Virus record (IMG/VR): IMGVR_UViG_3300045988_150439
From: a virus
Lineage: Duplodnaviria; Heunggongvirae; Uroviricota; Caudoviricetes
Strand: one strand, 5' to 3'
Length of the DNA stretch: 64,000 nt
Below are positions 1 to 64,000 of this stretch, one piece after another (the first letter of the stretch is position 1; each line of letters opens with the position of its first letter). Made by a program: the position numbers and the translations under genes. The notes below the pieces were generated by a model, which had not been told where the DNA came from, did no database searches, and saw only the letters and a program-made list of their open reading frames with translations.

Positions 1-760
1 GAGGATCGTCACACATAACGGGACAAAAGGTATCTTTTGGGACTTTAGTGATCTTAACGGAGGAACTTTAATTTTTCCAGGCAGTGGTGGTTATCTTAAG
101 ATGGGGAACTGCCTCATGTCGTATGGTGTGCGGGGAAGTAACGCGCTTATTAAGTTTGATTACACCGACACATTACAGATCAAATATGCTAATCATGGGT
201 CAACCATGACATTAACCACACAGGGATCCGCTCACGCTGGCGTAACAACTAGACTATGGGGTAATTCTAGCCGTCCGGTTGTTTATGAAGTTGGCGTAGA
301 TGAGGCTCTGTATATGTTCTACGCACAGAAAACTACCAGCAATACCTACGAATTAACGGTTAACGGCGCGTGCAATGCAAGTGCATTTAATCAAGGCTCT
401 GACCGGGATCTGAAAGACAATATTCAGGTGATCGATAATGCAACCGACCGCATTCGTAAAATGAACGGCTATACATACACGCTTAAAGAAAACGGTATGC
501 CTTACGCTGGTGTTATTGCACAAGAAGCCCTGGAAGCCATCCCCGAAGTCGTAGGGTCTATGATGAAATATCCAGACGGTGGGAGTGGATTAGATGGAGA
601 AGAAGGTGAACGGTATTACACTGTAGATTATTCTGGTGTTACTGGCTTGCTTGTTCAGGTAGCCAGAGAGTCAGACGACAGGATAACAGCACTGGAAGAA
701 GAAAACGCAGAATTAAGACAAAGATTATCTGCAATTGAGGCGGCGCTTGCGTCTAAATAA
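1..760 (+). CDS. tail fibre/tailspike protein, C-terminal fragment with intramolecular-chaperone (peptidase S74-like) domain; 5' end outside window
   Basis: Frame open from window edge into ORF 101..760 (no stop from nt 2). Last ~120 aa show SDRDLKDNI / GYTYTLKENG / GVIAQE then coiled coil ALEEENAELRQRL, typical of self-cleaving fibre chaperone domains. Confidence 0.7.
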   Translation, partial: RIVTHNGTKGIFWDFSDLNGGTLIFPGSGGYLKMGNCLMSYGVRGSNALIKFDYTDTLQIKYANHGSTMTLTTQGSAHAGVTTRLWGNSSRPVVYEVGVDEALYMFYAQKTTSNTYELTVNGACNASAFNQGSDRDLKDNIQVIDNATDRIRKMNGYTYTLKENGMPYAGVIAQEALEAIPEVVGSMMKYPDGGSGLDGEEGERYYTVDYSGVTGLLVQVARESDDRITALEEENAELRQRLSAIEAALASK

Positions 761-766
761 TATTAA

Positions 767-789
767 GGGGCCGAGCGCCCCGTTTTATT
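767..789 (+). terminator. rho-independent terminator
   Basis: Hairpin ggggc-cgagc-gcccc followed by gtttta, directly after the fibre stop codon. Confidence 0.6.
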
Positions 790-802
790 GGGTAGGATGA
801 AA

Positions 803-1087
803 ATGGATATAACACCTTTCCTTCATGCGCTTTGTGCTGTGGCTGCGCAGCTACTGATTGGTCTTTTTACCGGGAACTGGGCTTACGGGGCGATAGCCGG
901 TTGTACGTTCTTCATTGCGCGTGAACACACCCAGGCAGAATATCGCTGGATTGAAATGTTCGGGCATGGCAAGCGTATGAATATGCCGTGGTGGGGCGGT
1001 TTTGATCCGCGCGCTTGGGATGTGGCAAGTCTGATGGATTTTGCGATTCCACTTTTAGCGTGCACATTATTATATATTTTTATTTAA
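803..1087 (+). CDS. small hydrophobic membrane protein (holin/antiholin candidate)
   Basis: ORF 788..1087; ATG at 803 follows AGGA. Product is largely hydrophobic with 2-3 likely TM segments. Confidence 0.45.
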   Translation: MDITPFLHALCAVAAQLLIGLFTGNWAYGAIAGCTFFIAREHTQAEYRWIEMFGHGKRMNMPWWGGFDPRAWDVASLMDFAIPLLACTLLYIFI

Positions 1088-1268
1088 TATAAGATTAACT
1101 GAGATATAGCTTACGCAAAGAAGGTAATAAATATAAAGAGAGATGTTCTGAGGTAATTTATTGTTGGTATTTAAGGTTATTTACAGATAGGTAAGTGCAT
1201 ACCTATATAAAAAAGATAAAATGTGATATAAATCCGCCATCCCGATTTGACTTTTCATGGAGGAAAAT

Positions 1269-1592
1269 ATGTCGAACGAGATGGCGGGCGTAACAACAGA
1301 GCAAGTTGAGCGCATTGCCGCGATCGTTGCTCGGGAGGTTGTCGGCAAATTAGGTAAAGAGCTACGTGAAGAAATTGGCCAGGAGGTCAACGATCAGCTG
1401 AAAACCTACTTTGGTGATATGACCCCGGCGCAACATAGTATTCAACACTCCAACCTGGACAAACTCCTTAACCGGTTAGATTCCATCTCCAGTGGGTTCT
1501 TTGGCGGCATTGTTTCTAAAATAACGTCGTTCATTATTACCGCACTGCTTTTGGGGTTAGCCGCGTATGGCGTGAAAAATGGACTGCAATAA
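1269..1592 (+). CDS. hypothetical protein with C-terminal transmembrane anchor
   Basis: ORF 1257..1592; ATG 1269 lies 5 nt after GGAGG. C-terminal ITSFIITALLLGLAAYGV is a TM helix. Confidence 0.45.
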   Translation: MSNEMAGVTTEQVERIAAIVAREVVGKLGKELREEIGQEVNDQLKTYFGDMTPAQHSIQHSNLDKLLNRLDSISSGFFGGIVSKITSFIITALLLGLAAYGVKNGLQ

Positions 1593-1605
1593 CAGGAGAT
1601 CAAGG

Positions 1606-2298
1606 ATGCAGACTCCGAGAGGCATTCGTAATAATAACCCCGGTAATCTGGATAAAGGATCACCGTGGCAAGGTCTGGTTGCGAATCCAGACGAACCGCG
1701 CTTTTGCACGTTTAAAGACCCTGTTTGGGGGATTCGTGCGCTGGCGGTGACTCTAATTACCTACCACGATAAACGTCGCGCAAAAGACGGCTCAAGTATC
1801 GATACCATTCGTGAAGTTATTGAACGCTGGGCACCGCCGAATGAAAACAATACTGACGCCTACATTAATGAGGTGTCTAAAGCCGTTGGTGTAACCGCAG
1901 ACATGATCATCGATCTGCATGATTACGACATCCTTCGACCTTTAGTTGAGGCAATCATTCGCCACGAGAATGGCCGAGGCCCGCTAAAAACGCTGAACAC
2001 CTGGTATGCGGCAGAAGTTATTGAGGAAGGTCTGCGTCGAGCTGGCGTTGTTAAGCCGGTGAAAACCGTGAAGGCTGTTCCTGTAACTAAAGAAACCGCA
2101 GGCGCAACTGTTACAGCAGGTATTGGTCTGGCGCAGCTGGCCGATGTTATGCCGCAGGTTTCCGCTGCTATGGATAAAGCACAAGGTCATATCTCTAGCG
2201 GGGATACAGTACGCATCATCTTCGGTATTGCCACTATTGTTGTGGCAGGATTCATTGCCTGGTCGCAGGTAAGAAAACACCAGAAAGGGATGGTCTAA
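1606..2298 (+). CDS. membrane-anchored protein of unknown function in endolysin position of a lysis-like cluster
   Basis: ORF 1579..2298; probable ATG 1606 after AGGAG. N-terminal RNNNPGN motif, C-terminal TM helix; no catalytic motif recognised. Confidence 0.4.
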   Translation: MQTPRGIRNNNPGNLDKGSPWQGLVANPDEPRFCTFKDPVWGIRALAVTLITYHDKRRAKDGSSIDTIREVIERWAPPNENNTDAYINEVSKAVGVTADMIIDLHDYDILRPLVEAIIRHENGRGPLKTLNTWYAAEVIEEGLRRAGVVKPVKTVKAVPVTKETAGATVTAGIGLAQLADVMPQVSAAMDKAQGHISSGDTVRIIFGIATIVVAGFIAWSQVRKHQKGMV

Positions 2299-2299: not shown

Positions 2300-2551
2300 A
2301 TGCTAGGCAGCCTGATGACAAAGCTAAAAGTTGCTTTGATTACGCTGGCTGCCGTTCTTTTCGTTCTTGTCGGCGCTTACACGATGGGCGGGAATGCGGC
2401 GCGACGAGCAATGGAAGAGAAGGCAAAACAGGAAGACAGAAAACGACTTCAAAACACAGTGAAAGTGGTGAATGAGACGAGCAGTAAAATACGTCAGAAA
2501 GATGCTTCTGCCGTTCATCGTGAGTTGTATGATAAGTGGGTGCGTCATTAA
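2300..2551 (+). CDS. i-spanin-like (Rz-like) membrane protein
   Basis: N-terminal TM helix then charged region; 3' end overlapped out of frame by a lipoprotein gene. Confidence 0.45.
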   Translation: MLGSLMTKLKVALITLAAVLFVLVGAYTMGGNAARRAMEEKAKQEDRKRLQNTVKVVNETSSKIRQKDASAVHRELYDKWVRH

Positions 2552-2719: not shown

Positions 2720-3241
2720 TTATTCTTCGAACAATTTTTCGATAGATTTTGTAGGATAGAACAAAGAACGCTCGTTGTTACCAACCAGCTGGATAAAGCC
2801 TAAACTTTTATAAAACGCCTTGGCTTTGTCATTTAACGCCTCAACGAAAAGTCCATGAATGCCTACAGCAAGAGATGCATTGTACACAACGCGCATTGCA
2901 TGTGTTACAAGCATTGAGCCAAATCCTTGACCTTGAAGGGACTTGTCCAAAGCCAGCCTACCCAAAGTAACACTTGGAACATTCCGATAAGGAACCTTCT
3001 TTTGTTTGCTTCTTGAAGGTAAGGACTCCTTTTCAAAACAACTACCTGACAAAGTGTAATATCCTAACACTTTTGGCCTTTCTTCTTGAGTGCAAAGCAC
3101 ATAAGCACGAAGAATTTTTCCCTCATGCTGCCTTTTTAAGTGGTTGGCTAAAAAGGCGTTTAGTGACTCTTCGCCGCAATCAAAACCGTTTAGATCATAA
3201 TCTTTCTCTCCAGAGAAAATCTCTATCGTTGTATTGCTCAC
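2720..3241 (-). CDS. GNAT-family acetyltransferase toxin (TacT/AtaT-like)
   Basis: 173 aa, GNAT motif QGQGFGSMLV; GTG start 8 nt after the stop of a DUF1778-type gene on the same strand. Confidence 0.7.
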   Translation of the reverse strand: MSNTTIEIFSGEKDYDLNGFDCGEESLNAFLANHLKRQHEGKILRAYVLCTQEERPKVLGYYTLSGSCFEKESLPSRSKQKKVPYRNVPSVTLGRLALDKSLQGQGFGSMLVTHAMRVVYNASLAVGIHGLFVEALNDKAKAFYKSLGFIQLVGNNERSLFYPTKSIEKLFEE

Positions 3242-3248: not shown

Positions 3249-3518
3249 CTACTCCATGCTTTTCAGACGATCAGCAGCTCGTTTCAGCTTGTCGTTCGGT
3301 GCCGGAGGATTGCTTATAGCGTCCATAACCAGATTCCAGGATTCTTCATTCAGAACTAGTCTACGGTGTTGCTCTATAACTTTCACGGCACGTTCAGATG
3401 CACTGCTAACCATAAACTGAGTAATGCTCTGGTTAGACATTGCGGCAGCTTCCTCGATGATGCTTTTATCGTCATCGGTTAATCTCAAATCGATGCGCTG
3501 CTTTTTTAGTGCTGACAT
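3249..3518 (-). CDS. DUF1778-type ribbon-helix-helix antitoxin (TacA/AtaR-like)
   Basis: ORF 3249..3557; probable ATG 3518 follows GGAGG. About 89 aa with KKQRIDLRL strand then helices and PPAPN tail; precedes the GNAT gene. Confidence 0.65.
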   Translation of the reverse strand: MSALKKQRIDLRLTDDDKSIIEEAAAMSNQSITQFMVSSASERAVKVIEQHRRLVLNEESWNLVMDAISNPPAPNDKLKRAADRLKSME

Positions 3519-3836
3519 GTATTCCTCCTGATGGCCGTGATATAGGAAGGCCATCAATCTCCTCTGTTCAAACTGAGTTTTCGACTCAAAAATTACTTTA
3601 AAAGGCTATAGCCCATTACGTGTGCATTATCAAATTGTGTACGGCATATCACCGTACTTGTAATATAGAGGTCATTGTTACTTTTTTCAACAGGCAAATA
3701 CAAGCAATGATTGCCAATTGTTAACCACAACCTACCATTTTACCTTTACACCGCAGCCGTAGGCATTTAGGCTATATCACATATAAGAAAACAAGTTGTT
3801 TCAGACGATAATTATATACGCAAAGGGAACTCTCCA

Positions 3837-4505
3837 ATGACCAAGATCTTTGTGGTTGGCGGCACAAAGGGCGGGCCTGGCAAATCCACCGTTGCCCAGC
3901 AAATTGCCGTTTGCCTGAAAGTCAAAAAGAAGAAGAAGGTTTATATCACTGATATAGATATTCAGCGCACGACAACAAGCTGGTGTGAAGACCGTCGACA
4001 GAACGAAGATCTTGAGCTGATTCCTTTTGCATACGTTCAGGATGACATCATTAAGCACCTAAAATCGCTTCAGGGTAGAGCTGAGTTTGTAGTGGTAGAT
4101 GCTGGTGGCTTCGACTCCGAAATTCAGCGACAAGCGATGCTGATGGCTGACGTTATCATTATCCCGCTGCGTCCTAAGCGTCGTGATTTGAAATCTTTAC
4201 GTGACATCGATCCTATTATCGACAATGTTCGCAATGTAAACGATAAAGTGAAGGTCCGCGCGGTCATGAACCAGTGCCCGGCTTTGCCATCACAAGTGTC
4301 TCGCATTCTGGCGGCTAAAGAGATTGTTGAGACGTTTGGAATCGAGTCTGCGCCAGTCAATCTATATAACCGCAACGTCTATGATGATGCGGAAGAGTCT
4401 GGTCGTTCTATCTTTGAAATGACCGGTAGCGAGCGCGACAAAAAGGCGGAAGCCGAGTTTGAAGAATTTGTAGATTATCTGTTGAGTCTGGAGGAAGAAG
4501 AATAA
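3837..4505 (+). CDS. parA: ParA/Soj-type partition ATPase
   Basis: Deviant Walker A GGTKGGPGKST at N-terminus; 222 aa; stop overlaps start of downstream gene (TAATG). Confidence 0.8.
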   Translation: MTKIFVVGGTKGGPGKSTVAQQIAVCLKVKKKKKVYITDIDIQRTTTSWCEDRRQNEDLELIPFAYVQDDIIKHLKSLQGRAEFVVVDAGGFDSEIQRQAMLMADVIIIPLRPKRRDLKSLRDIDPIIDNVRNVNDKVKVRAVMNQCPALPSQVSRILAAKEIVETFGIESAPVNLYNRNVYDDAEESGRSIFEMTGSERDKKAEAEFEEFVDYLLSLEEEE

Positions 4506-4864
4506 TGTCCATGAAAATGGGTGACCTAGCAAAGCGCAAAGAGCCTGATGCACCGGCTAAGAACACAACTCCTTTGCGCCAACCAGTCAGACCACAGGGA
4601 CGCCCGACTCGTGGCAAAGAGAAAATTAAAAGCCGCACAATGTCACTGGAAGACGAATACTTCGAACTGCTGGAGATGATGAAGTTCATCCCTCGCTTCG
4701 AGAAGTTCACTCGTTCTGACGTGATTCGAGCAGCCATTTTCCATCTGGCAGAGAAGTCACCGCAGGAAATCGAGGACATCGTGAAGCTTAACGAGGCGAT
4801 CACAGCTGCCGACGTTACGATGCGTACCGATGAAATTAAACGAGAGTTGATGAAGAAAGGTTGA
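4505..4864 (+). CDS. small partition DNA-binding protein (ParG-like ribbon-helix-helix)
   Basis: 119 aa; basic N-terminus then RHH-like segment RTMSLEDEYFELLEMM...RSDVIRAAI; translationally coupled to parA. Confidence 0.5.
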   Translation: MSMKMGDLAKRKEPDAPAKNTTPLRQPVRPQGRPTRGKEKIKSRTMSLEDEYFELLEMMKFIPRFEKFTRSDVIRAAIFHLAEKSPQEIEDIVKLNEAITAADVTMRTDEIKRELMKKG

Positions 4865-4867
4865 TTA

Positions 4868-4890
4868 TATTGGGCGTTTGTTACGCCCAA
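4868..4890. repeat. perfect inverted repeat ttgggcgt / acgcccaa (hairpin or protein-binding site)
   Basis: Read directly; lies between the par operon and the AT-rich KAP gene. Confidence 0.4.
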
Positions 4891-4915
4891 TATATGAATT
4901 AAAGGATTGATACTA

Positions 4916-6610
4916 ATGGAATCGATAGAATCATTTCTAAAAAATTTTCTAGTTTCAGATCATCGGGTTGCCGTCATAAAAGGAGATTGGGGCGTTGGTA
5001 AAACTCATTATTGGAATAGTTTTTATACTAAGCATTCTGAAGGATTAGATTTTAATGCATATTCGTATGTTTCTTTGTTTGGGGTTAACTCTATTGGTGA
5101 TATTAAAAAAACTCTTTATCATTGTGCCACACCAATTAATGAAAAGAAATATAAAGAACTAATTTTATCTGAAACGGATCGAACTATGATTCGTTATAGA
5201 AATGGGTTTTGGGGATGGTTGAAATACAACTCCTTGTCAAAATTTTTAATACATTTCGGAAAGAACGATTTTTTTGGGTTCAAAACAGATAACCTGCTGT
5301 CATCTCTTGAGTATAAATTTGTTAATAATTATTTGGTTTGTATTGATGATGTTGAAAGAAAAGGTAATTCGCTAGAAGTTAAAGAAATTATGGGGGTAAT
5401 TGATGAATTAGCAAGAAGAAAAGGTTGCAAAGTTGTTCTAATTTTAAATGAAGATAATTTACATGATGAAACTGCAAAAAAACAGTTTTTAGAGTACAGA
5501 GAAAAAGTAATTGATGTCGAAATAAAATACGATCCTACGCCTGAGAAGAACTTACGTAAAGTTTTTTATGAAACTGATTCTGATTTTCTTTTGTTAAAAG
5601 TCTTAGCAAATGACTTAGGCATTAAAAATATCCGTATATTAAATAAAATAAAAACATCTCTGGTTAATCTTAGGAATGAGCTAAGCTTGGCAGAGGATAA
5701 GGTTAGAGAAAGTTTTATCAATAGATTGGTTCTGTTTTCAGTGGTTTACTATTCTGGTGTTCCAGGTGTTGATTATGCCTTGTTTAAAGAATCAATTAAA
5801 AACATACATGTATTTGATTACATGTTAGATGATAAAAAGGATGATTCTGTATATTCATTTATTAATAGTCTTGATATTATTTATGAACGAGCGGAAATTG
5901 CTTTCGATGATGACATAGATTTTTATCTCAAGAATGGTTATCTTTCTACTGAAAGCAATATTCGAGGTATAATAGAAGAAAAAAATAAACAATATAAAGA
6001 ACACAAGGCTTTATGTGAGGTTAACAATGTTTGGGATATTTTTAGTGACTCATTCAAGGACAATGAATCTGAGTTTATTTCTAAGATAAAATGTGTAATT
6101 AACGACAATCTTTCACACATACCTGTTGCTCACTTCATAGGCTTGATTGATATCTTAAATAGATTGTTGATTGATTGTGATAGTTATATAGAGGCATATG
6201 CAGATGCCTTTGTTAGCCAAGATGATGCTTATACTGCTTTTCGGAATTTGTATGTAGAGATATTTGGTAACGAAAAGTTAGGTCTGCTAATTCAAAAAAA
6301 ATTGATGGATAAGAAGCCTGAAGAGACTAATTTAGAGAATGTTTTATACAAAATAATTGAAGGCAAATTTAATCATAGTGACATAGCATATCTTAACAGT
6401 TTCTCTGAAGATGATTATTTAAAGTGGATATTATCCCGCAATCAGGATGCTTTGGATTTAGTGAGAAAGGGGTTGCTCAGATTCAAAAGTATGCAAGAAC
6501 TAACAGAAGAACAGCAAAAAATCACGAATAAAGCAATAGGTGCATTAACGAAACTGGCCTCTAGATCAAGTCTTAACAAACTACGTGTGAGCAGATTGCT
6601 TAATAATTAA
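4916..6610 (+). CDS. KAP-family P-loop NTPase
   Basis: ORF 4907..6610; ATG 4916 follows AAAGGA. Walker A GDWGVGKTHYW near N-terminus, DDVER Walker B-like; coding region clearly AT-rich relative to neighbours. Confidence 0.6.
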   Translation: MESIESFLKNFLVSDHRVAVIKGDWGVGKTHYWNSFYTKHSEGLDFNAYSYVSLFGVNSIGDIKKTLYHCATPINEKKYKELILSETDRTMIRYRNGFWGWLKYNSLSKFLIHFGKNDFFGFKTDNLLSSLEYKFVNNYLVCIDDVERKGNSLEVKEIMGVIDELARRKGCKVVLILNEDNLHDETAKKQFLEYREKVIDVEIKYDPTPEKNLRKVFYETDSDFLLLKVLANDLGIKNIRILNKIKTSLVNLRNELSLAEDKVRESFINRLVLFSVVYYSGVPGVDYALFKESIKNIHVFDYMLDDKKDDSVYSFINSLDIIYERAEIAFDDDIDFYLKNGYLSTESNIRGIIEEKNKQYKEHKALCEVNNVWDIFSDSFKDNESEFISKIKCVINDNLSHIPVAHFIGLIDILNRLLIDCDSYIEAYADAFVSQDDAYTAFRNLYVEIFGNEKLGLLIQKKLMDKKPEETNLENVLYKIIEGKFNHSDIAYLNSFSEDDYLKWILSRNQDALDLVRKGLLRFKSMQELTEEQQKITNKAIGALTKLASRSSLNKLRVSRLLNN

Positions 6611-6620
6611 GTATTCATGA

Positions 6621-56208: not shown

Positions 56209-56267
56209 ATTGCCAGACATAAAATCAAATGCAAAAATAGGTAATCACTTACCTATCGAGAAAGAAG

Positions 56268-56861: not shown

Positions 56862-56884
56862 TTTGCTCTGGCGTCTGTAATTAG

Positions 56885-56941
56885 CCTGCTTCTGTATATA
56901 TATAAATAACTACATATTAATTATTAATATACGGAAGCAGG
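56885..56941 (+). repeat. AT-loop hairpin element copy 2
   Basis: Stem cctgcttctgtatat / atatacggaagcagg; matches element at 6621..6671. Confidence 0.5.
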
Positions 56942-57024
56942 CTGTTTTGTATCAGAGACTCCAGACCTGAACATCACTACAGAATCCACTAGAACCCCTT
57001 CCCAGACGCTTTAAAATCGATTTT

Positions 57025-57279
57025 ATGAACCACTTTAAGGAAACCAACATGTCATACCCGACTAATGTCGTTGCGCTCGTAGAGAGCGATTTTCTGGCTA
57101 AGGCTCGTGAAATGATGAAAGATCGCGAGCAGGCTTTCAACTTGTACGAATGGGCAATTAAGTGCTTGCATCTTGGGGAGCATCGCGAACTTGTTGAACA
57201 GCTTTTAGGTGAGTTGATCAACGAGGTGTTTGCCTTGAATGTTCAACTACATGGTCGAGAAAATAATCAATCGAAATGA
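57025..57279 (+). CDS. hypothetical protein (84 aa)
   Basis: ORF only; helical. Confidence 0.35.
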   Translation: MNHFKETNMSYPTNVVALVESDFLAKAREMMKDREQAFNLYEWAIKCLHLGEHRELVEQLLGELINEVFALNVQLHGRENNQSK

Positions 57280-57299
57280 TAGATAAGTACAAACTATTC

Positions 57300-57810
57300 A
57301 TAAAATGAATTGTAAGTGCTAAGATCTGATAGTTTCCAGTCGTAGACTGGAGACTCGACCTGATGGGTGGGGGTAAGCGTCACTGGCGTCAGGTTTAAAA
57401 AAGCTCACTACCAGCGTAGAACCGGTGCCGTTTAGGTGTCGGGGAAGGGGGAACCAAAGTGAGCGGAGACAAGGGTCACTTTATGATTGTCGAGTCTGGG
57501 GTGTTTCGAGAGGTTGAATCCAGTACTCCCCTTCATAAAGTGTGGGAAGATCTCGGTTCTGGGGTGCTGTCATCCATAACTTCCCAAGTCTAAGCTGGCA
57601 GTAGACTTAGACCATAGCTTTTCAGGTTATGAAACGACCAGGTTGGTGAGGAATTTTATACTCACCTCCCTGGGAGAGTATTACCTGAAAAGACAACCTC
57701 TCACTTCGTTCGAGGTGAACTTCACTCACTTCGTTCGTTCAGTTCAGGTTTATAAAAACCTGTTCTGGGAAGTAATTTGTTTATTTTAATAATTATTAAC
57801 ACGCACGCGT
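57300..57810. other. ORF-free structured region upstream of rnhA (candidate ncRNA or origin)
   Basis: About 510 bp with no ORF of 60 aa or more on the plus strand; several stem-forming segments and a GC palindrome acgcacgcgtgtgcgcacgcgcg near 57800. Confidence 0.3.
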
Positions 57811-57861
57811 GTGCGCACGCGCGAGGAAAAAATCGGCGCGGCGCTTGATTCAGGAGTTTAT

Positions 57862-58455
57862 ATGACGACGAAGACACCAGCCCGATCGCAAGAAAAAACT
57901 CGCAAAAAAGCCAAAAACAAAAATTCTCCCCGCGCCAATTCCACAACGCCTGTCGTAGAGTTCAATCCCCAGCTTAAAACCGTGAAAATCTTCAGTGATG
58001 GCTCTTGCCTTAAAAATCCGGGTGGCCCGGGCGGTTACGGTATAGTTCTCCAGTATCGTGGTGAGGAACGCGAGTTCTCAGATGGTTTTCATAGCACCAC
58101 CAATAACCGCATGGAGATGATGGGGGCACTTATTGGGCTGGAGCGTTTGAAATATCCATGCAACGTTATTTTGCACTCTGATAGCCAGTATCTGAAAAAC
58201 GGCATGACACAGTGGATGAAATGGTGGAAACGCAATGGATGGGTGACTTCTGACAAAAAACCGGTAAAGAATGTTGATCTGTGGAAGCGTCTGGATGAGG
58301 CCGCAAGTCGACATAATGTTCGCTGGAAGTGGGTTAAAGGTCACGCCGGGCATCGTGAAAATGAAATATGTGATCGACTCGCGAAGATCGCAGCTTTTTC
58401 CGCAGCAGATATGCCTCACAAGAAAGATATTGGTTTTGTTTACAACAAGCAGTAA
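57862..58455 (+). CDS. rnhA: ribonuclease HI
   Basis: ORF 57811..58455; probable ATG 57862 follows AGGAG. Motifs [34 protein letters not shown]; basic N-terminal extension. Confidence 0.85.
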
Positions 58456-58600
58456 GTAAGTGTTTACCTATCATTTTAAATCATGTATCTTATCAGCGTC
58501 AGGATGACAATGTGTCGGTAAGACACAGTTCCAGGATGGAACGAGAAAGGCGGCTGGCAATCGCCAGCCGCAACTCTTTCTGACACTGGATGGAGTCCAC

Positions 58601-59095
58601 ATGGCACGTCAAACCTATTTCACTTCTGCAACTAAACGTCCTCGTTCACTACGTCAAATTTTGGCCGAATTATTTAGCGGTCGTGTTCTGTCACGTCTTG
58701 ATGAACTAGAGACTGCCGTTCGGTTGCTGAATGAACGTTTAGATAAGCAAGCGTCAGTTGTTGCGAACGTGGGGGCGATTGTTACCTCTGGTTCTTCACG
58801 CGAAGCGAAAAGTACACGGCCTTTAGTGAAGGAGAAAAACAACAAGGACAGTTCGAATGGAAAATTTTCAAAGAAAGAGGCTGAAACCAATGGCCTACGT
58901 TCTCATTATAGTTTCACTGGCGACGATAGCCGTTCCAGCCGGCCAGAGCCTTTTGATGCCGGGTTCATCCATCACCACACCTCCGTCGACGACAATTACC
59001 ACCACTCCAGTAGAGCGTCCTGTCACTCTGGATGGGATGACGGTGGATGCGATACCTCAAGTTCATCCAGTTACTCAGGATCATGCTGTGACTAA
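58601..59095 (+). CDS. hypothetical protein
   Basis: 164 aa ORF; helical N-terminus, low-complexity Ser/Asp/His-rich C-terminus; an overlapping frame (58857..59108) encodes a membrane-like peptide, so the true gene structure is unclear. Confidence 0.3.
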   Translation: MARQTYFTSATKRPRSLRQILAELFSGRVLSRLDELETAVRLLNERLDKQASVVANVGAIVTSGSSREAKSTRPLVKEKNNKDSSNGKFSKKEAETNGLRSHYSFTGDDSRSSRPEPFDAGFIHHHTSVDDNYHHSSRASCHSGWDDGGCDTSSSSSYSGSCCD

Positions 59096-59104
59096 GGCGG
59101 TTGT

Positions 59105-59302
59105 ATGAACTGGTTTTCAAATCACTTTGGAAAAACTTGGCTGGCGATTCTGGCTTTCATAGCTCTCATGGCCGCCGGTTGGGTATCGAACATTGTAAAA
59201 CTCGTTTGCTCTGGTGATCTCCAGTTTCAGGCTGGTATGACCTTGGCTCGTGTTGTTGGGATTTTTGTTTTTCCAGTCGGTTCGGTACTTGGTTATTTCT
59301 GA
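59105..59302 (+). CDS. small membrane protein (65 aa)
   Basis: Two hydrophobic helices. Confidence 0.4.
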   Translation: MNWFSNHFGKTWLAILAFIALMAAGWVSNIVKLVCSGDLQFQAGMTLARVVGIFVFPVGSVLGYF

Positions 59303-59395
59303 CGGTTGTTAGTGCATATGCATTGACCGTCTTTTCGTAAGCAATTCATGTAACTAGAAAACAACTTGTTTTAACAAATAATAAAAGGAAAGCAC

Positions 59396-59821
59396 ATGTT
59401 AGGTTTATTCAAAAAGAAAACTCGTAAAGCTGTTATCGAGGTCAAAAAAATGGAGAACCGAGATGCGGTTGAAGCCACCGTGTGGGGCGCGTACATGATC
59501 TCCTATGCCGATGGCACATGCGACGCAAAGGAAATTTCCATTCTTGAGAAAACAATTGCAGCTCTGCCTGCGTTTTCTCCGTTTGCTGGTGAGATTGCCC
59601 AAATGAGCGCCAATATCCGTGCTCAATACGAAGCCTCACCGCGCCGCGCTAATGCCCAGGCTTTACGTGAGCTGGCTGATGTGGCCGGGACTAATGATGC
59701 AGTAGATGTACTGTGTCTGTGCCTTGATATTGCCGACCAAGACGGTATTGGCGAACAAGAAGAGCTGGCCCTGAAAAAGATCGCACAGGCGCTTCAGTTG
59801 TCACTGGATGCTTATCTCTAA
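59396..59821 (+). CDS. hypothetical protein (TerB-like?)
   Basis: 141 aa; helical with YADGTCDAKEISILE and DIADQDGIGEQEELALKKI segments reminiscent of TerB-type domains; conserved aaaggaaagcacATG context. Confidence 0.35.
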   Translation: MLGLFKKKTRKAVIEVKKMENRDAVEATVWGAYMISYADGTCDAKEISILEKTIAALPAFSPFAGEIAQMSANIRAQYEASPRRANAQALRELADVAGTNDAVDVLCLCLDIADQDGIGEQEELALKKIAQALQLSLDAYL

Positions 59822-59979
59822 TGCTTGAGAGATTCCGGCTTGTGACCGTCATTGCTCTTCTGGTGATGGCGGTGTTGGTGGATTTTACGGGAAAGATGAT
59901 GTCTGTCATTTCTGATGGCGTCCTCATTGGTCTGGCGATCTACTTCGCTTATCCGCTAGTCCGTAAAGCAACGTGTTAA
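59821..59979 (+). CDS. small membrane protein (52 aa)
   Basis: Below track cutoff; TAATG overlap with upstream stop; two hydrophobic segments. Confidence 0.35.
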   Translation: MLERFRLVTVIALLVMAVLVDFTGKMMSVISDGVLIGLAIYFAYPLVRKATC

Positions 59980-59981
59980 TG

Positions 59982-60010
59982 ACAAGGGCCAAATGGCCCT
60001 TGTGTTTCGT
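59982..60010 (+). terminator. rho-independent terminator
   Basis: acaagggcc-aaat-ggcccttgt followed by gtttcgtt. Confidence 0.6.
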
Positions 60011-60118
60011 TGACCGAAATAGAGAGTTTGCACCTTTACGTTTAGCTTGCTCCCCTTTTATGCCACATCACAATAAAGCCAATAAGAAAACAACTTGTTT
60101 AAGCATTAGGAAAAACAC

Positions 60119-60688
60119 ATGTGCAAGAAATGCAAAGCGATAGCTGATGAACAAAACGCCTTATTCGAAGAAATGGATGCTAATGAACTGGTCAAAATGT
60201 TAGCCATTCTTCGAGGAATAGAAGACGTTTCCATATTTGAGAGAGTGGTTACAGCACTTAATTTTGAGTCCACCTTTGAAGAGCCAACTCAGGTTGTAGC
60301 TTTAGCACATCATTTCGGTGTTCATTATCTTGCTGAAAAAGAGCGCGCTGATAAGTTGCAGGCGGCTTTGGATATGGTGAGCGAGACTCAACGAACTGAT
60401 GACACTAACAAGAGTGAGGCGATTATTGCCAGCAAAGATCGTGAAATTGCTGGGCTTAAATCCTCTCTAACGATGTTGATGTCTGCGTTCAATCTTATGT
60501 CTTCTCAGGCGGGTTATAAAATGCCATCACTAAACAGTGATGATCCGATGGCCGTTCGTCAGCTTTTGGGAGCAATGGCCGACCAACTCGACGACACAAA
60601 GAGTCGGCTTGAAGACATGATGCGTGAGTTAAGCCATCGACATAACCTCGCAACACAGCCACACAAAGCCTTTCAAAGCTCTAATTGA
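60119..60688 (+). CDS. hypothetical protein
   Basis: 189 aa; N-terminal CKKC; helical; conserved aaaaacacATG context. Confidence 0.45.
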   Translation: MCKKCKAIADEQNALFEEMDANELVKMLAILRGIEDVSIFERVVTALNFESTFEEPTQVVALAHHFGVHYLAEKERADKLQAALDMVSETQRTDDTNKSEAIIASKDREIAGLKSSLTMLMSAFNLMSSQAGYKMPSLNSDDPMAVRQLLGAMADQLDDTKSRLEDMMRELSHRHNLATQPHKAFQSSN

Positions 60689-60743
60689 TCTGATATGGCC
60701 GCATGATCGGCCATATTGTGTTGATAAAAAACAAGGATGAAAA

Positions 60744-61025
60744 ATGGCATACGGTACAGGGATTTACAACAATAAAGGAATTAACGTTACTGGCTTCCTT
60801 ACTCCTATTTTTTTTCTTGATCGATTTACTGCGTCATCAGGCTCTAAGACGTACTCCAATCCGCCACCGGGTAAATCGCTACATGCCGTGTGGTCATTGA
60901 TGCCTCTTAACAACGACAACTACATTAATTTACCTGTTCCAACAGTTACTATTAATGGAAATACGGTTAGTTGGTCAAATTTATATACGGGGCTTGGTTC
61001 TTACATATACACATACTGGGGATAA
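60744..61025 (+). CDS. hypothetical protein (93 aa, Gly/Asn/Tyr/Thr-rich)
   Basis: ATG follows AGGA; beta-rich composition. Confidence 0.4.
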   Translation: MAYGTGIYNNKGINVTGFLTPIFFLDRFTASSGSKTYSNPPPGKSLHAVWSLMPLNNDNYINLPVPTVTINGNTVSWSNLYTGLGSYIYTYWG

Positions 61026-61027
61026 TT

Positions 61028-61642
61028 ATGTTCGGGATGTCAATTACACAATCAGATGGAAGTTTGTGGATGAGTCCAGAATTTACTCCGCAAAATCTGA
61101 TTAATAAAGGGACAATGTCTACATCTAAAGGTTCTGTTTTTCAAACATCAATCCCATCAAACAAATCATGCTTTTTCTTCATAAAAAGCAGTAATAAGGC
61201 GAACATGATGTTTATTCATGAGCATAGTAACGGATACAATGCTCTCAGATTGCATCAGGTAAATGGTAGCCCCGGAACAATAACAGTTTATGCTTTTTCT
61301 GATATGGTGTTACCACATTCTGGCTATGGCATTGCCATGTATAACAGCGCAGGCGCAATGGTGTATCACGGTGAGATGATGCCCCTTGATGCGAAACTTA
61401 TCACTATTTCTGACCCTCAATTTACAATAGATATGGGGTATCCATGTGCGGTAATGCCTGCTATGGTTGGGGTATATAACTATAGACGAACCGATTACGA
61501 CAGACCTGTCTATGTAACAATGACAGGTGCAACTGGAAACCAAGTATATAACGGTCAATGGTATTCCGGTAATGTCACATGGGATATTAAGAAGATTTAT
61601 ACAAACAAAATTCTGGTGATAAATACCTCCAAGTATGATTAG
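61028..61642 (+). CDS. hypothetical protein (204 aa)
   Basis: ORF 60971..61642; probable ATG 61028 after GGGGA and upstream stop; Tyr/Asn/Gly-rich. Confidence 0.4.
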   Translation: MFGMSITQSDGSLWMSPEFTPQNLINKGTMSTSKGSVFQTSIPSNKSCFFFIKSSNKANMMFIHEHSNGYNALRLHQVNGSPGTITVYAFSDMVLPHSGYGIAMYNSAGAMVYHGEMMPLDAKLITISDPQFTIDMGYPCAVMPAMVGVYNYRRTDYDRPVYVTMTGATGNQVYNGQWYSGNVTWDIKKIYTNKILVINTSKYD

Positions 61643-61745
61643 CCAATGCCTTTATTTGAAGGATTGCCTGTTTATTTCTATTTAGTACCTTTTCATTTTT
61701 GAAATAATTGCACCATTAAACAAATCACTTCTTAATGGTGCAATT

Positions 61746-63431
61746 ATGAATACAGCCCTTTCCATCATCGACGATGCCAACTCAAACACTGCTATCGACT
61801 ATCGGCAGGAAATGAACGTCATCCACGAAATTGTGGCCGAGTGCGAGAAAGAGATCGCCTTCATGTATCAGGTACACGACTTCGTTTATGGCGACGAACG
61901 CCACAACATGATTAATCGCCTGCTGAGACTAAACCATCGACCAGATGAAGATCGCTCGCGTTTAAATCGAGGTTGGTTGGATAAAGTCGATCTGGAATGG
62001 GTGAAACAGAATATTTGGGCCGAGTACTGGAGGAAGGTCACGGACATGACTAACGTTTTGCTGATCATGCCAGCTTCCCGTCGAGATGAGTGGCGCGAGC
62101 AGTTTATAGAGGGCAAACAGGAAGTCATCAAAACTGACAGAACCGGCTACCAGATGAAGGTTAAAGAGTTCGTTGGTGTACCGGAGTTCAAAGCAGAAAC
62201 GGTCATACCCACGATGCTTAATTTGCTGAATGACAGGCACAAATATCTCTCTGAGCGCGTGTATGGCTTGTTTAAGGCGCTGAGTCCTGCGCACAAGACA
62301 AATAAGACAAACGGTTTCAGCGAGCGTCTGATAATCGCTGACTGCATTTCTGATTTCTGGCGGGACAGCGTTAGCGTGAACTATCGCAAAGAGGACTACA
62401 TCGACGATCTGCGTGTCTTGCTTCATTTCTTCGCGCACAAAGAATTTATTACCATCAACCGCACTGCTGAGGTGCTATCAGCTGCGTATCGAGCAAACGA
62501 CTGCCAGACCGGTGACTGGATTAACGTCGATGGAAATCTGATGCGCGTGAAGATGTTCAAGAACGGCAACGTTCACTTTGAAATACATCCTGACGTGGCC
62601 TGGAAGTTGAATGAGGTGCTGGCTTACAGTATGCCTGCTGCAATCCCCGCGCCATGCCGAACTGCGCCAAAAACACGGGCACCAAAGCAGTTCGGTTTAA
62701 TCCAGAAGACGATCTCCGTGCAGGTTCGCACTGCGCTTCGTGACGGGCGATTGAGCAAAGACAAAGGCGTATGGTACTTCTCTGATTCAGCTCTCCAGAA
62801 GTCGCAGGTGGAAGAGCTTGAGCGCACACTGAGCTTCATTGGCGGCGTGCAGGAGAAAAAGCACTGGCAGTTCCCGTATGACATCGGCCATACGCTAAAT
62901 ACGATTGTGGCTACCGGTTTAATACCGGATACAAAATCACACCAGTTCTACCCTACCCCACGCTTGATTGCTGAGTACGTTGCCAGAGCCACTGAATTGA
63001 AGCCTGGTGAGAAGCTGTTGGAGCCTCAAGCCGGACGTGGGGATCTTCTGGCCTATATTAACGCCGATCTGGAAGATGTTACCTGCATAGAAATCGCACC
63101 TCTCTTCGCTGATATCCTGCGTGGAAAAGGGTATACGAACACGATTTGCTGCGACTTCATAAAGTGGTCTGAGGACAACGCAGGTTATCAGTTCGACAAA
63201 ATCGTTATGAACCCGCCGTACTCGCTTGGTCGTCATAGAGAGCACACGCTGGCTGCGCTGGGGCATCTGAAAGTCGGCGGGCGTCTTGTAGCAGTATTGC
63301 CGGGCACTGCGCCAATACTGGACTGGATGACGATGGATAATTACGTTTATGCCAGAGGGAAGTCGTTTACCAACGAGTTTGAAGACACAGGGATCACAGT
63401 CAGCGTATACGTTTTCAAACGCGTTAAATGA
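61746..63431 (+). CDS. DNA methyltransferase with large N-terminal domain
   Basis: 561 aa; C-terminal FYPTPR, SAM-binding LEPQAGRGDLL, catalytic VMNPPYS (motif I before IV); N-terminal ~390 aa unassigned. Confidence 0.55.
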   Translation: MNTALSIIDDANSNTAIDYRQEMNVIHEIVAECEKEIAFMYQVHDFVYGDERHNMINRLLRLNHRPDEDRSRLNRGWLDKVDLEWVKQNIWAEYWRKVTDMTNVLLIMPASRRDEWREQFIEGKQEVIKTDRTGYQMKVKEFVGVPEFKAETVIPTMLNLLNDRHKYLSERVYGLFKALSPAHKTNKTNGFSERLIIADCISDFWRDSVSVNYRKEDYIDDLRVLLHFFAHKEFITINRTAEVLSAAYRANDCQTGDWINVDGNLMRVKMFKNGNVHFEIHPDVAWKLNEVLAYSMPAAIPAPCRTAPKTRAPKQFGLIQKTISVQVRTALRDGRLSKDKGVWYFSDSALQKSQVEELERTLSFIGGVQEKKHWQFPYDIGHTLNTIVATGLIPDTKSHQFYPTPRLIAEYVARATELKPGEKLLEPQAGRGDLLAYINADLEDVTCIEIAPLFADILRGKGYTNTICCDFIKWSEDNAGYQFDKIVMNPPYSLGRHREHTLAALGHLKVGGRLVAVLPGTAPILDWMTMDNYVYARGKSFTNEFEDTGITVSVYVFKRVK

Positions 63432-63492
63432 TAGGTAAATACTTACTTAATTTGTGTAAGAATGTAGTTACTAAACGATAAGAGAAAAACAC

Positions 63493-64000
63493 ATGAACAA
63501 CCTCCAGTTAGAGCATTTTAACGTCACAGGCCATTCTGATTTTCCTTTCAAGTTTACATTGAAAGGTTATGCAGAGGATGCGGTAGGCCAGATCATTATT
63601 GATAAAGGCATCGTTAAGTTTGAGGGGAATTTTGATGAATCCGCGAAAACATTCATAGACTTCGTTGCCAAACGTTGGAGCGAGCAATGGAAAGACCTGG
63701 AAAAGCGCGCTAGTGAGTTTGATCGGTTCATGGATGCAATGGATACAGCAAAAGAGGCTCTGGCTGCCGGGACTCCGTTAGATCTGGAGTCACTTTTCAA
63801 CGGCGAAGTGGCATCTGCGATGTTCGCTACCATGTTCGCGGGTGAGTTCGTCCGCAGCGGTGCCAAAAATTACCTTGAGCTGGATTACAACGTCCCTGCA
63901 ATTGGCGATTTCGTCGTTACCATCCAACGCAAAGAAGGTAAGACGCCAGGTGAACGCGTCGCAGAACTTGAGGCTGTTGTGGATCAGCGTAACGGAGAGT
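63493..64000 (+). CDS. hypothetical protein, 3' end outside window
   Basis: Not in ORF track because it has no stop before the window edge; ATG in conserved agagaaaaacacATG context; frame open for ~169 codons. Confidence 0.5.
   Translation, partial: MNNLQLEHFNVTGHSDFPFKFTLKGYAEDAVGQIIIDKGIVKFEGNFDESAKTFIDFVAKRWSEQWKDLEKRASEFDRFMDAMDTAKEALAAGTPLDLESLFNGEVASAMFATMFAGEFVRSGAKNYLELDYNVPAIGDFVVTIQRKEGKTPGERVAELEAVVDQRNGE

Follow-up and report, generated by a model that had tools for sequence, protein, structure and literature searches.

The 64,000 bp stretch of DNA analysed here (the window) is, with little doubt, about 64 kb of a ~110-kb SSU5-supergroup phage-plasmid of E. coli in the pLF82/Cyrano-pSLy3 lineage, a temperate siphovirus that is maintained as a low-copy extrachromosomal plasmid. 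The window represents about 60% of the full phage-plasmid. This kind of element is already known and is ordinary: Cyrano, which is plasmid pLF82 of E. coli LF82 (OV696614), is near-identical, and SSU5 (NC_018843) and pHCM2 of S. Typhi CT18 (NC_003385) are related. The SSU5 supergroup is by definition composed of phage-plasmids (PMC7969092; PMC12977533).

Relationships to known phage-plasmids

Nucleotide searches show that Cyrano is collinear with the window from ~25.5 to 85.2 kb at 96-99% nucleotide identity in all but seven segments, and 106-113 kb non-mobilizable E. coli plasmids match across the window at the same level. Cyrano shares 57 of the 65 window ORFs (98% amino acid identity), and pSLy3 (NZ_CP015915), the type element of the pSLy3 phage-plasmid group, shares 49 (92%), with a backbone that is 96% identical in nucleotide sequence across 45.9 of the 64 kb. 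SSU5 (48/65 ORFs; 78% amino acid identity) and pHCM2 (49/65; 79%) have the same gene order throughout, at ~80% nucleotide identity. An earlier note on this DNA had proposed a phage-plasmid resembling SSU5 and pHCM2, to be tested by searches with the polymerase, RepA and ParA genes together with a synteny comparison; phage-plasmids are the best matches, not a chromosomal prophage or a virulent phage lacking partition and replication functions, and both proposals are thus supported. The highest coverage of the first 25 kb by any record in three collections is 87%, and this exact mosaic is therefore absent among the records searched.

The presence of a tyrosine recombinase gene (19105-20208) would be compatible with a chromosomal prophage integrated through a tyrosine integrase, but we regard this as very improbable. 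All of the records matching at least 80% of two 25-kb queries are 105-127 kb in length, mostly 106-113 kb, and the two checked directly are plasmids (p88COLEC-2, with a plasmid annotation, and the circular plasmid pSLy3). Chromosomal matches are either short mosaic pieces or just 60-80% identical, the latter being read as putative host paralogues. Moreover, the iteron replicon is complete and, like the partition operon, conserved, and there is no chromosomal flank within the 64 kb.

Plasmid replication and partition

The replicon, predicted as such in the earlier note, occupies 38160-40380 and is composed of the following:

38226-38656, downstream iteron cluster, both orientations
38660-39715, reverse strand, repA (Rep3_N and Rep3_C domains, both above cut-offs)
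39761-39877, upstream iteron array with 21-bp spacing
39880-40000, GATC-rich stretch with a DnaA box at 39990
40080-40119, AT-rich stretch (82% AT)
40162-40258, second iteron array
40280-40380, second GATC-rich stretch

The iteron motif CTMYAGTGGWT is present 25 times in the window (4.95 expected; none of 100 shuffles reached 25), with 21 of the 25 copies lying between 38226 and 40369, and the two GATC-rich stretches contain four and six GATC sites against expected counts of 0.5 and 0.4. RepA is 100% identical to that of Cyrano and 91-92% identical to those of SSU5 and pHCM2, and the iteron layout around repA is the same in all three. The pSLy3 initiator differs, being a 404-residue RepB-family protein (rep_cluster_488) only 50% identical to RepA of the window. 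pHCM2 types as IncFIB.

From the sequence and its relatives we predict that the iterons spaced at 21 bp immediately upstream of repA are the binding sites of its product, a Rep_3 initiator of the winged-helix type, and that these iterons together with the adjacent DnaA box, GATC clusters and AT-rich stretch would form the origin. Iteron titration or handcuffing limits copy number in the P1 and RepFIB replicons, and by analogy the second array and the downstream iteron cluster probably cap copy number in one of these ways. P1 is likewise a low-copy phage-plasmid with RepA between origin and control iterons, a partition operon and a tyrosine recombinase; however, it is a functional analogue from a separate phage-plasmid family, a myovirus with an unrelated backbone, type Ia ParA/ParB and Cre-lox, and there is no overall synteny.

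The partition operon contains two overlapping genes:

3837-4505, forward strand, ParA, a ParF-like Walker ATPase (Pfam MipZ/AAA_31/CbiA)
4505-4864, forward strand, 119-residue ParA partner overlapping the parA stop codon (phrog_5111)

The assignment of ParA is firm: its nearest solved structure is ParF of TP228 (1.2e-10), and it matches NCBIfam ParA_partition at 1.9e-33, with a score of 115.7 bits that lies under the 180-bit curated cut-off. Both ParA and its partner are 100% identical to the Cyrano proteins. For ParA, identity is 89-91% with the SSU5 and pHCM2 proteins and 98-100% with that of pSLy3; the partner shares 93-100% amino acid identity with its counterparts in SSU5, pHCM2, pSLy3 and Cyrano. 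The partner has no family assignment beyond phrog_5111 and is not a ParB, a qualification to the partition genes claimed previously. A weak ribbon-helix-helix-type match at residues 54-79 and an AF2 model (pLDDT 67) with a disordered N-terminus and three helices suggest that it is probably a ribbon-helix-helix adaptor; a fold search with this low-confidence model found nothing, and no centromere repeats were found. ParA and this small protein would segregate the plasmid copies.

Toxin-antitoxin pairs, recombinase and candidate repressor

There are at least three candidate toxin-antitoxin pairs, in agreement with the number proposed, as well as the tyrosine recombinase that had also been noted:

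2720-3241, reverse strand, TacT-like toxin (GNAT domains)
3249-3557, reverse strand, TacA antitoxin (TacA1, 8.7e-26)
17903-18511, forward strand, 202-residue protein directly before the YafO toxin
18521-18931, forward strand, YafO-family toxin
19105-20208, forward strand, tyrosine recombinase (Phage_integrase, 4.7e-10)
20203-20589, reverse strand, HTH regulator convergent to the recombinase (HTH_19; phrog_8)
29139-29987, reverse strand, two-gene module (PADLOC PDC-M06A/B) of 74 (29763-29987) then 199 (29139-29738) residues

The TacT/TacA assignment is firm, and the pair is present in Cyrano and absent from SSU5, pHCM2 and pSLy3. The PDC-M06 pair, which pSLy3 also lacks, is labelled HicA/HicB (HicAB) in the Cyrano annotation; neither Pfam HicA nor HicB matches it, and its AF2 model has an alpha-beta-beta-beta-alpha topology. 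The block at 17562-18931 that ends with yafO has phrog_13546 and phrog_1651 matches. TacAT and the other toxin-antitoxin-like pairs may punish loss of the element or serve in defence.

The recombinase and HTH regulator are 99-100% identical to Cyrano CYRAN_44/45, are present in pHCM2 and pSLy3, and are missing from SSU5. The regulator matches phrog_8 (transcriptional regulator, 1.3e-11) and HTH_19 (7.8e-04), the latter at 19.7 bits against a cut-off of 30.2 bits. CYRAN_45 is given as a putative repressor (PMC9928086), and by analogy the HTH regulator is a candidate lysogeny repressor. For the recombinase, the most likely role is multimer resolution, as performed by Cre in P1.

Virion and lysis genes

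The window begins within the tail-fibre gene, followed by the lysis genes:

2-760, forward strand, 3' end of the tail-fibre gene, encoding a Peptidase_S74 intramolecular chaperone at the C-terminus (PF13884, 3.9e-14)
788-1087, forward strand, small membrane protein (phrog_1443) accompanying the tail-fibre tip
1257-1592, forward strand, holin-like protein
1579-2298, forward strand, endolysin (phrog_873, 4.4e-89)
2300-2551, forward strand, Rz spanin (phrog_1026, 7e-25)

The tail-fibre gene reported earlier is indeed present, but only as its last 253 codons, its frame being open from base 2 and running past the window start. The tip is 89-97% identical in nucleotide sequence to those of lambdoid phages (PhiR46_1, Tritos and 2G7b) and is absent from Cyrano. 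The lysis cassette (1257-2551) is 99-100% identical in amino acid sequence to that annotated as holin/endolysin/Rz/Rz1 in Cyrano.

No capsid, terminase, portal or tail-tube genes lie within the 64-kb window, both ends of which fall inside the element. In Cyrano and pSLy3 the terminase, portal, capsid, tape-measure and tail genes are directly upstream of the homologous tail-fibre gene, and the virion genes here would similarly sit upstream of the tail-fibre end at base 1. With the virion module outside the window, this could instead be a defective descendant of an SSU5-like phage-plasmid, with plasmid replication and partition intact but virion production lost; defective and hybrid phage-plasmids are on record (PMC12977533), and one report describes a Klebsiella SSU5-like plasmid that acted as a plasmid and not as an inducible prophage (PMC8969562). 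We consider this unlikely. Cyrano produces virions, and each of the 57 ORFs that it shares with the window is full length (mean amino acid identity of 98%), the lysis cassette and tail-fibre gene end among them, and neither IS elements nor truncations were seen in the 64 kb. Cyrano itself is kept as a plasmid, with 5.5 copies per cell; ciprofloxacin induces it 39-fold, and siphovirus particles that match it have been seen (PMC9928086).

Replication, recombination and nucleotide metabolism

Family matches confirm the phage replication and nucleotide-metabolism module described in the earlier note, listed here with genes that lie among or beside it:

7573-12885, forward strand, replisome genes, including two ORFs without named function
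7573-8913, forward strand, DnaB-like helicase
8923-10173, forward strand, primase
11563-12885, forward strand, ATP-dependent DNA ligase (DNA_ligase_A_M, 5e-13)
17562-17807, forward strand, glutaredoxin
21152-24591, forward strand, CobT-like VWA protein and AAA_5 ATPase, a 'porphyrin biosynthesis' pair conserved in the family
24772-28290, forward strand, DnaE-type DNA polymerase III alpha subunit, 1172 residues (PHP, DNA_pol3_alpha 1.8e-73, finger, HHH_6)
28569-28987, reverse strand, cspA-like cold-shock gene with thermoregulator 5' UTR (RF01766, 183.9 bits; CSD, 4.1e-33)
30242-35432, forward strand, UvsY-like mediator (weak), gp32-like SSB, 5'-3' exonuclease and RecA-like recombinase
41358-45901, forward strand, SbcD-like (41358-42443) and SbcC-like (42673-44589) proteins, one further ORF and RuvC-like resolvase (45332-45901)
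45975-53286, forward strand, NrdA, NrdB, MazG-like, ThyA (367 residues), PNK-phosphatase-like, DHFR and AAA kinase-like proteins
53777-54571, forward strand, free-standing HNH homing endonuclease (phrog_374, 2.1e-79)
54568-55116, forward strand, DnaQ-like 3'-5' exonuclease (RNase_T, 1.3e-22)
56268-63431, forward strand, Dam methyltransferase, RNase H, TerB/TciA-like protein, other ORFs and DUF4942 protein with a methyltransferase-like C-terminus

The helicase and primase are assigned by phrog_19 and phrog_47 and by DnaB_C and Toprim domains. DnaE is 93-94% identical to its SSU5 and pHCM2 counterparts and 95% to that of pSLy3; most of the pSLy3 genes for the replisome and nucleotide metabolism, and its integrase, are 98-100% identical to those of the window. 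The 779-residue RecA-like recombinase is split by an intein with a LAGLIDADG endonuclease; the orthologues in SSU5, pHCM2 and pSLy3 are ~358 residues and cover just 38% of it. The HNH endonuclease is not found in relatives and abuts the DnaQ-like exonuclease, which is 79% identical to those of Cyrano and pSLy3, whereas the adjoining genes there are 96-100% identical. A TciA-like gene is common to P1 and the window.

In its phage mode the element would use a replisome that it encodes itself, made up of a DnaB-like helicase and a primase, DnaE and its DnaQ-like proofreader, gp32-like SSB, RNase H, a flap exonuclease and the ATP-dependent ligase. It would also draw on a recombination set comprising the RecA-like recombinase, UvsY-like mediator, SbcCD and RuvC-like resolvase, a dNTP supply from NrdAB, ThyA, DHFR, MazG and glutaredoxin, three tRNAs, and the holin-endolysin-spanin cassette. 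Large virulent phages, too, carry a replisome, a ribonucleotide reductase, a thymidylate synthase and tRNAs of their own, but that this is a virulent siphovirus, T5-like or other, with incidental plasmid-like genes is so improbable as to be negligible. The T5 polymerase belongs to family A and its ligase is NAD-dependent, while those here are DnaE-type and ATP-dependent; no T5-like records are among the matches, as the earlier note's exclusion of T5 anticipated, and the searches yielded no virulent phage matching the backbone. Furthermore, the candidate HTH repressor, RepA and iterons, ParA and toxin-antitoxin modules are kept across plasmid records, and the backbone is already found in such records, i.e. 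as a resident replicon.

Cargo genes and non-coding RNAs

The genes in two cargo slots and a non-coding RNA region (14088-15034, forward strand) are as follows:

4907-6610, forward strand, KAP-family P-loop NTPase, candidate defence gene (PF07693, 1.6e-05; PADLOC PDC-S49, 6.9e-22)
14088-14207, forward strand, hairpin unit 0
14475-14549, forward strand, tRNA-Asn
14552-14627, forward strand, tRNA-Thr
14630-14716, forward strand, hairpin unit 1
14770-14846, forward strand, hairpin unit 2
14948-15034, forward strand, tRNA-Ser
15213-16424, reverse strand, 403-residue protein (phrog_30092)
16451-17317, reverse strand, AbiGi-family protein (Pfam, 5.2e-25; PADLOC, 6.5e-47)

The KAP NTPase gene has a local GC content of 0.37 and is missing from SSU5, pHCM2, pSLy3 and Cyrano, where CYRAN_30 takes its place. 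The slot at 15213-17317 is 99.7-99.8% identical in nucleotide sequence in four E. coli plasmids; its 403-residue product matches no Pfam, PADLOC or NCBIfam family. The tRNAs are predicted by ARAGORN, with Rfam tRNA matches, and folds in the RNA region have z-scores of -3.7 to -6.3. In the P1 trnA-trnT region the tRNA-Asn/tRNA-Thr block is 84% identical and the following sequence 95.5% identical; SSU5 has tRNA-Asn as its only tRNA. Hairpin units 0 to 2, which are RNA-like and lie around the tRNA cluster, are members of a widespread family that is not in Rfam.

Cyrano carries TacAT, the cspA-like gene, the PDC-M06 pair and the intein-bearing recombinase at 98-100% amino acid identity. Besides the tail-fibre tip and the KAP NTPase, it differs in lacking the two hairpin units between tRNA-Thr and tRNA-Ser, in the AbiGi and 403-residue genes, in the 202-residue ORF and YafO, in a patch within dnaE, and in the HNH endonuclease upstream of the DnaQ-like exonuclease. 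pSLy3 lacks the cspA-like gene and intein, and has a type I restriction-modification system, a group II intron and IS91; SSU5 and pHCM2 also lack the cspA-like gene and intein, together with the window's cargo genes. The designation SSU5/pHCM2-type is correct at the supergroup level, with a backbone like that of pSLy3 and Cyrano, a replicon like that of pHCM2 and pLF82, and a subgroup of either pSLy3 or SSU5_pHCM2. Differences from its relatives are confined to defence-type cargo slots and an exchanged tail-fibre tip.

Relationship to known phage-plasmids

Searching phage records with the window in three parts (megablast) identifies Escherichia phage Cyrano, the plasmid pLF82 of E. coli LF82 (OV696614, 108,379 bp), as a collinear match at 97.7–98.4% identity, covering 73% of bases 1–25000, 99% of 25001–50000 and 92% of 50001–64000; Salmonella phage SSU5 is next, at approximately 80% nucleotide identity. 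By direct blastn against the reassembled Cyrano genome, positions 1170–64000 align to Cyrano 26638–85189, and seven segments are without alignment (1–1169, 4866–6616, 14634–14932, 15217–17550, 17780–18973, 26957–27175 and 53773–54569). We also compared 65 translated window ORFs by tblastn with four relatives, among them SSU5 (NC_018843), pHCM2 (NC_003385) and pSLy3 (NZ_CP015915), and the order of the ORFs is identical between the window and all four.

Window ORFs (of 65) common to four relatives, with mean amino acid identity
Cyrano: 57 of 65; 98%
pSLy3: 49 of 65; 92%
pHCM2: 49 of 65; 79%
SSU5: 48 of 65; 78%

An earlier note had taken this DNA for a phage-plasmid of the SSU5/pHCM2 type and had proposed a comparison of synteny; its observation is confirmed, both the gene-by-gene search and the shared gene order favor that reading, and the collinear repertoire places the element in the SSU5 supergroup. 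The same note was right to set it apart from T5. A virulent T5-like phage would have the family A polymerase and NAD-dependent ligase that are T5 traits; the polymerase here is instead DnaE-type, the ligase has an ATP-dependent domain, and there is no T5-like record among the matches.

In plasmid records and complete E. coli genomes the best matches are non-mobilizable E. coli plasmids, mostly of 105–113 kb, at 97–99% identity, several of which carry an ISEcp1-family transposase. Positions 25001–50000 are covered to 80% or more by 51 records from 5,426 complete E. coli genomes (the 12 listed of these 51 are 106–113 kb in size); approximately 5,400 other records match at 60–80% identity only, and we read these as paralogues in the host (dnaE, nrdAB and csp). 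For the left part of the window, p88COLEC-2 is the closest record and is annotated as a plasmid; pSLy3 is a circular plasmid record. The exact mosaic of the window occurs in no record of the three collections searched, in which the first 25 kb are covered to 87% at best. This type of element is nonetheless already known, and this member of it nearly so.

The element extends beyond the window on both sides. The 64 kb include the lysis cassette and the 3' part of the tail-fiber gene, and no terminase, portal, capsid, head or tail genes; in Cyrano and pSLy3 the virion and packaging genes are directly upstream of the homologous tail-fiber gene.

A pHCM2-type replicon in a pSLy3-type backbone

The backbone is 96% identical in nucleotide sequence to pSLy3 over 45.9 kb, but the 351-residue RepA is only 50% identical to the pSLy3 initiator and 91–92% identical to the RepA proteins of SSU5 and pHCM2. 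The pSLy3 initiator (76358–77572) is a 404-residue RepB-family protein, whereas the backbone flanking it is 96–100% identical to the window; Cyrano, like the window, has a pHCM2-type RepA. On these sequence comparisons the element is best described as an E. coli pSLy3/Cyrano-type phage backbone joined to a pHCM2/pLF82-type replicon, the replicon having evidently been swapped within one backbone lineage. This combination agrees with the published rule of conserved phage genes and variable plasmid genes.

The replication module has the following parts:

38226–38656, iteron cluster in both orientations, downstream of repA
38660–39715 (minus), RepA: Rep3_N 42.2 bits (cut-off 22.4), Rep3_C 22.6 bits (cut-off 21.1)
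39761–39877, iteron array with 21-bp spacing, directly upstream of repA
40162–40258, second iteron array

In RepA the two winged-helix domains of Rep_3 both exceed their Pfam cut-offs, as in a two-winged-helix initiator, and a PDB sequence search found no match to it among solved structures. Around its gene are approximately 20 iterons, together with a DnaA box and stretches rich in GATC or in AT. With one mismatch allowed, the window has 25 copies of the iteron motif CTMYAGTGGWT, where 4.95 would be expected; none of 100 shuffles reached this number, and 21 of the 25 lie within 38226–40369. The first array is followed by an 82% AT stretch and by a GATC-rich stretch (four sites against 0.5 expected) that contains the DnaA box TGTGGATAA at 39990; a second GATC-rich stretch (six sites against 0.4 expected) follows the second array. 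Cyrano, SSU5 and pHCM2 have the same iteron layout around repA, with 19–21 iterons near the gene and 2–6 elsewhere in each locus, and the conservation of these direct repeats at approximately 80% nucleotide identity argues for function.

The array and its GATC-rich stretch are present twice (39753–39965 and 40154–40358), approximately 381 bp apart; 39905–39941 and 40286–40322, for example, are 78% identical. These appear to be two origin-like modules upstream of repA. P1 and RepFIB replicons likewise have iteron sets flanking rep on either side, and pHCM2, whose RepA is 92% identical to that of the window, is typed as IncFIB by MOB-suite. By analogy, the iteron sets may be divided between origin and copy-control roles.

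Partition and maintenance

The partition operon consists of two overlapping genes:

3837–4505, ParA, a small Walker-type ATPase of 222 aa
4505–4864 (plus), ParA partner, 119 aa

ParA has the small size typical of type Ib systems, and its best solved relatives are ParF of TP228 (4dzz) and a ParA protein (5u1g), both at 1.2e-10. The partner ORF overlaps the parA stop codon and is 93–100% conserved across the supergroup, and by analogy it would act in partition. A weak match to a ribbon-helix-helix (RHH) family (residues 54–79, 2.3e-04) is below cut-off, and an AF2 model of low confidence (pLDDT 67) has a disordered N-terminus followed by helices at 48–59, 70–82 and 86–118. No family was assigned to it; Foldseek with this model returned no match, and a PDB sequence search gave matches at chance level only. 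In Cyrano this protein is labeled a 'RelE/ParE putative toxin', a label unsupported by the scans; the weak RHH match and the model hint at a ParG-like adaptor rather than a toxin. A search for centromere repeats around the operon found only short two-copy repeats, in 3500–3900 and 4800–4950, so we propose no parS here; the centromere may be elsewhere. By analogy, the tyrosine recombinase would resolve multimers and the HTH protein would act as a repressor.

Toxin-antitoxin-like and cargo genes

Of the toxin-antitoxin-like genes, TacT/TacA is firmly identified, with Acetyltransf_7/_1 above cut-off, TacA1 at 8.7e-26, and the two genes 7 nt apart on the minus strand. A second pair (29139–29987, minus; 74 and 199 aa) matches both components of the PADLOC candidate system PDC-M06A/B. 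It is labeled HicAB in Cyrano, but neither protein has a HicA or HicB domain or matches any Pfam family at E ≤ 0.01, and the fold search with the 74-residue protein is not significant: its predicted alpha-beta-beta-beta-alpha fold, for which double-stranded RNA-binding domains (dsRBDs) are the best matches (E 0.015–0.3), would be compatible with either a HicA or a dsRBD fold. The YafO toxin (YafO_toxin, 7.9e-22) is preceded by an unrelated 202-residue ORF whose product has no Pfam match above cut-off, no NCBIfam or PADLOC family, and only chance-level matches in a PDB sequence search; it belongs to phrog_13546, of unknown function.

An AbiGi gene (Pfam, PADLOC) adjoins a gene for a larger protein:

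15213–16424 (minus), 403-aa protein, phrog_30092; its family has 54 clusters, none of them annotated or with a Pfam domain

None of the AbiGii models matched it, and in other genomes its homologues are unaccompanied by AbiGi: they stand alone next to integrase genes of P2/186-like prophages, or lie in an integrative element together with ArdA, a genomic pattern suggestive of mobile-element cargo or a defense gene. Since the homologues stand alone next to prophage integrases, the gene of the 403-residue protein is probably a cargo gene in its own right and not AbiGii.

The AbiGi-YafO block is 99.7–99.8% identical in four E. coli plasmids, and a KAP NTPase (PADLOC PDC-S49) occupies the slot after the par operon. 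The cargo genes themselves are known; only their combination here is absent from the collections. The window also has a complete cspA-like cold-shock gene (28569–28987, minus) with a cspA thermoregulator 5' UTR (Rfam RF01766, 183.9 bits), which is present in Cyrano but not in SSU5, pHCM2 or pSLy3.

Exchanged segments and homing endonucleases

The left end of the window is the 3' part of the tail-fiber gene:

2–760, open frame, tail-fiber 3' part, ending in a Peptidase_S74 chaperone domain

Segment 1–1169, which encodes the tail-fiber tip with its S74 chaperone and a 99-residue membrane protein, is of lambdoid rather than Cyrano type. Bases 1–1044 match the lambdoid phages PhiR46_1, Tritos and 2G7b at 89–97%, and not Cyrano, which indicates a tip swapped as a putative host-range, or receptor-binding, module. 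LF82 harbors Tritos alongside Cyrano. After the end of the tail fiber come holin-like, endolysin and Rz genes, and the window also has genes for a replisome, for recombination and for nucleotide metabolism.

Two homing endonucleases are present. An intein with a LAGLIDADG homing endonuclease interrupts the RecA-like recombinase (33093–35432, plus, 779 aa); Cyrano has this intein too, whereas the orthologues in SSU5, pHCM2 and pSLy3 are intein-free and approximately 358 aa long. The other, an HNH homing endonuclease (264 aa, phrog_374, 2.1e-79) encoded by a free-standing gene, is in none of the four relatives; its gene lies directly upstream of that for a DnaQ-like exonuclease, the two together spanning 53777–55116 (plus). 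The exonuclease is 79% identical to its orthologues, against 96–100% for the neighboring genes, and co-conversion during homing may account for this divergence.

Within dnaE, a patch of 219 nt (26957–27175) has no nucleotide alignment with Cyrano, and DnaE is 93% identical to the Cyrano protein, 94% to that of SSU5 and 95% to that of pSLy3; dnaE is thus mosaic. The enzyme labeled 'ThyX' in Cyrano belongs to the ThyA family (PF00303, 2.2e-78; 367 aa, matched in two stretches).

Sequences shared with phage P1 lie near the tRNA genes and farther to the right. The block of tRNA-Asn (14475–14549) and tRNA-Thr (14552–14627), within 14471–14941, is 84% identical to P1 trnA-trnT, the 112 nt before tRNA-Ser (14948–15034) are 95.5% identical to P1 69805–69916, and a TciA/TerB-like gene (59396–59821) is also common to P1. 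Together these point to an exchange of modules between the P1 and SSU5 phage-plasmid families, as judged from sequence similarity.

Hairpin units flanking the tRNA genes

Three hairpin units flank the tRNAs:

14088–14207 (plus), upstream of tRNA-Asn
14630–14716 (plus), between tRNA-Thr and tRNA-Ser
14770–14846 (plus), between tRNA-Thr and tRNA-Ser

The latter two form long hairpins (z −6.3 and −3.7) in 320 nt that Cyrano lacks; the unit upstream of tRNA-Asn is kept in Cyrano, pSLy3, SSU5 and pHCM2. Their conserved stem of approximately 19 bp, (gc)ACAACAGGTAAGAGCATTG...CAGTGCTCTTAYCGTTGTG, encloses a hypervariable interior of 29–50 nt, and the units in the window have the stem variants ACAAC.GGTAAGAGCATTG / CAGTGCTCTTAYCGTTGTG or ACAACGTTGAGGCC / GGCCTCAACGTTGT.

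Related sequence occurs in 937 plasmid records, and a pattern scan found the hairpin in at least 120 viral DNA stretches. In P1 it is found in the ban operon, immediately past trnA-trnT, where the ORFs plp and upl run antisense across it; lambdoid-type contigs have the unit right behind a promoter-terminator pair resembling PR'-tR'. Among the matches listed, 34 distinct units have the stem of approximately 19 bp with one bulged A and 27 distinct interiors of 29–50 nt. Pairing at the seven stem positions outside the search pattern is kept in nearly all 18 stem variants, and five of these seven have double-sided, compensatory changes. One of the 34, which forms only 14 of 18 pairs and is located in what looks like coding sequence, probably matches by chance. 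The plus strand pairs more than the minus strand, through G-U wobbles, which favors an RNA made from the tRNA strand.

The units match no Rfam family at gathering or E ≤ 1 thresholds, and a full-text literature search with the stem sequence gave nothing relevant. C4, AgvB, AsxR and STnc100 were considered and rejected, as were the Pas sRNAs, which end in intrinsic terminators that these units lack. We put forward only tentatively, as a possibility we hold to be rather doubtful, that the units belong to a previously undescribed class of structured phage RNAs, which SSU5-type and P1-type phage-plasmids and lambdoid prophages would share and transcribe together with late genes or tRNAs. They might serve as processing modules of the RNase III type or be released as small RNAs. 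The family is offered as a lead, and it is the only item here that might repay further work.

Discussion

The SSU5 supergroup comprises the SSU5_pHCM2, pKpn, pSLy3 and pMT1 groups of Pfeifer et al. (PMC7969092), and its phage-plasmids are already catalogued in hundreds of Enterobacteriaceae genomes. In tyPPing the pSLy3 group (mostly E. coli) and the SSU5_pHCM2 group (mostly Salmonella) are closely related and have most signature profiles in common (PMC12977533). From the approximately 60% of the element in the window, we classify it at the supergroup level only. According to a 2025 preprint, all but two of the Escherichia and Shigella SSU5-group elements that it analyzed fall in two clades, and one phylogenetic group in clade J, with ISEc9 and blaCTX-M-15, is assigned to the pSLy3 subgroup. 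The PlasmidFinder replicon name IncFIB(pLF82-PhagePlasmid) is found in 13 papers.

As a discovery the element carries little weight, since the near-identical Cyrano has already been studied experimentally: it is described as an SSU5-like phage-plasmid with 5.5 copies per cell, ciprofloxacin induces it 39-fold, and particles with a 76-nm head and a 259-nm flexible tail have been attributed to it (PMC9928086). It serves rather as a worked example of how these phage-plasmids vary, with a conserved phage backbone, a swappable replicon (pHCM2-type here, RepB-type in pSLy3), a few slots for defense-type cargo (the KAP NTPase, AbiGi and toxin-antitoxin pairs), selfish endonucleases (the intein and the HNH gene), and a tail-fiber tip borrowed from lambdoid phages.
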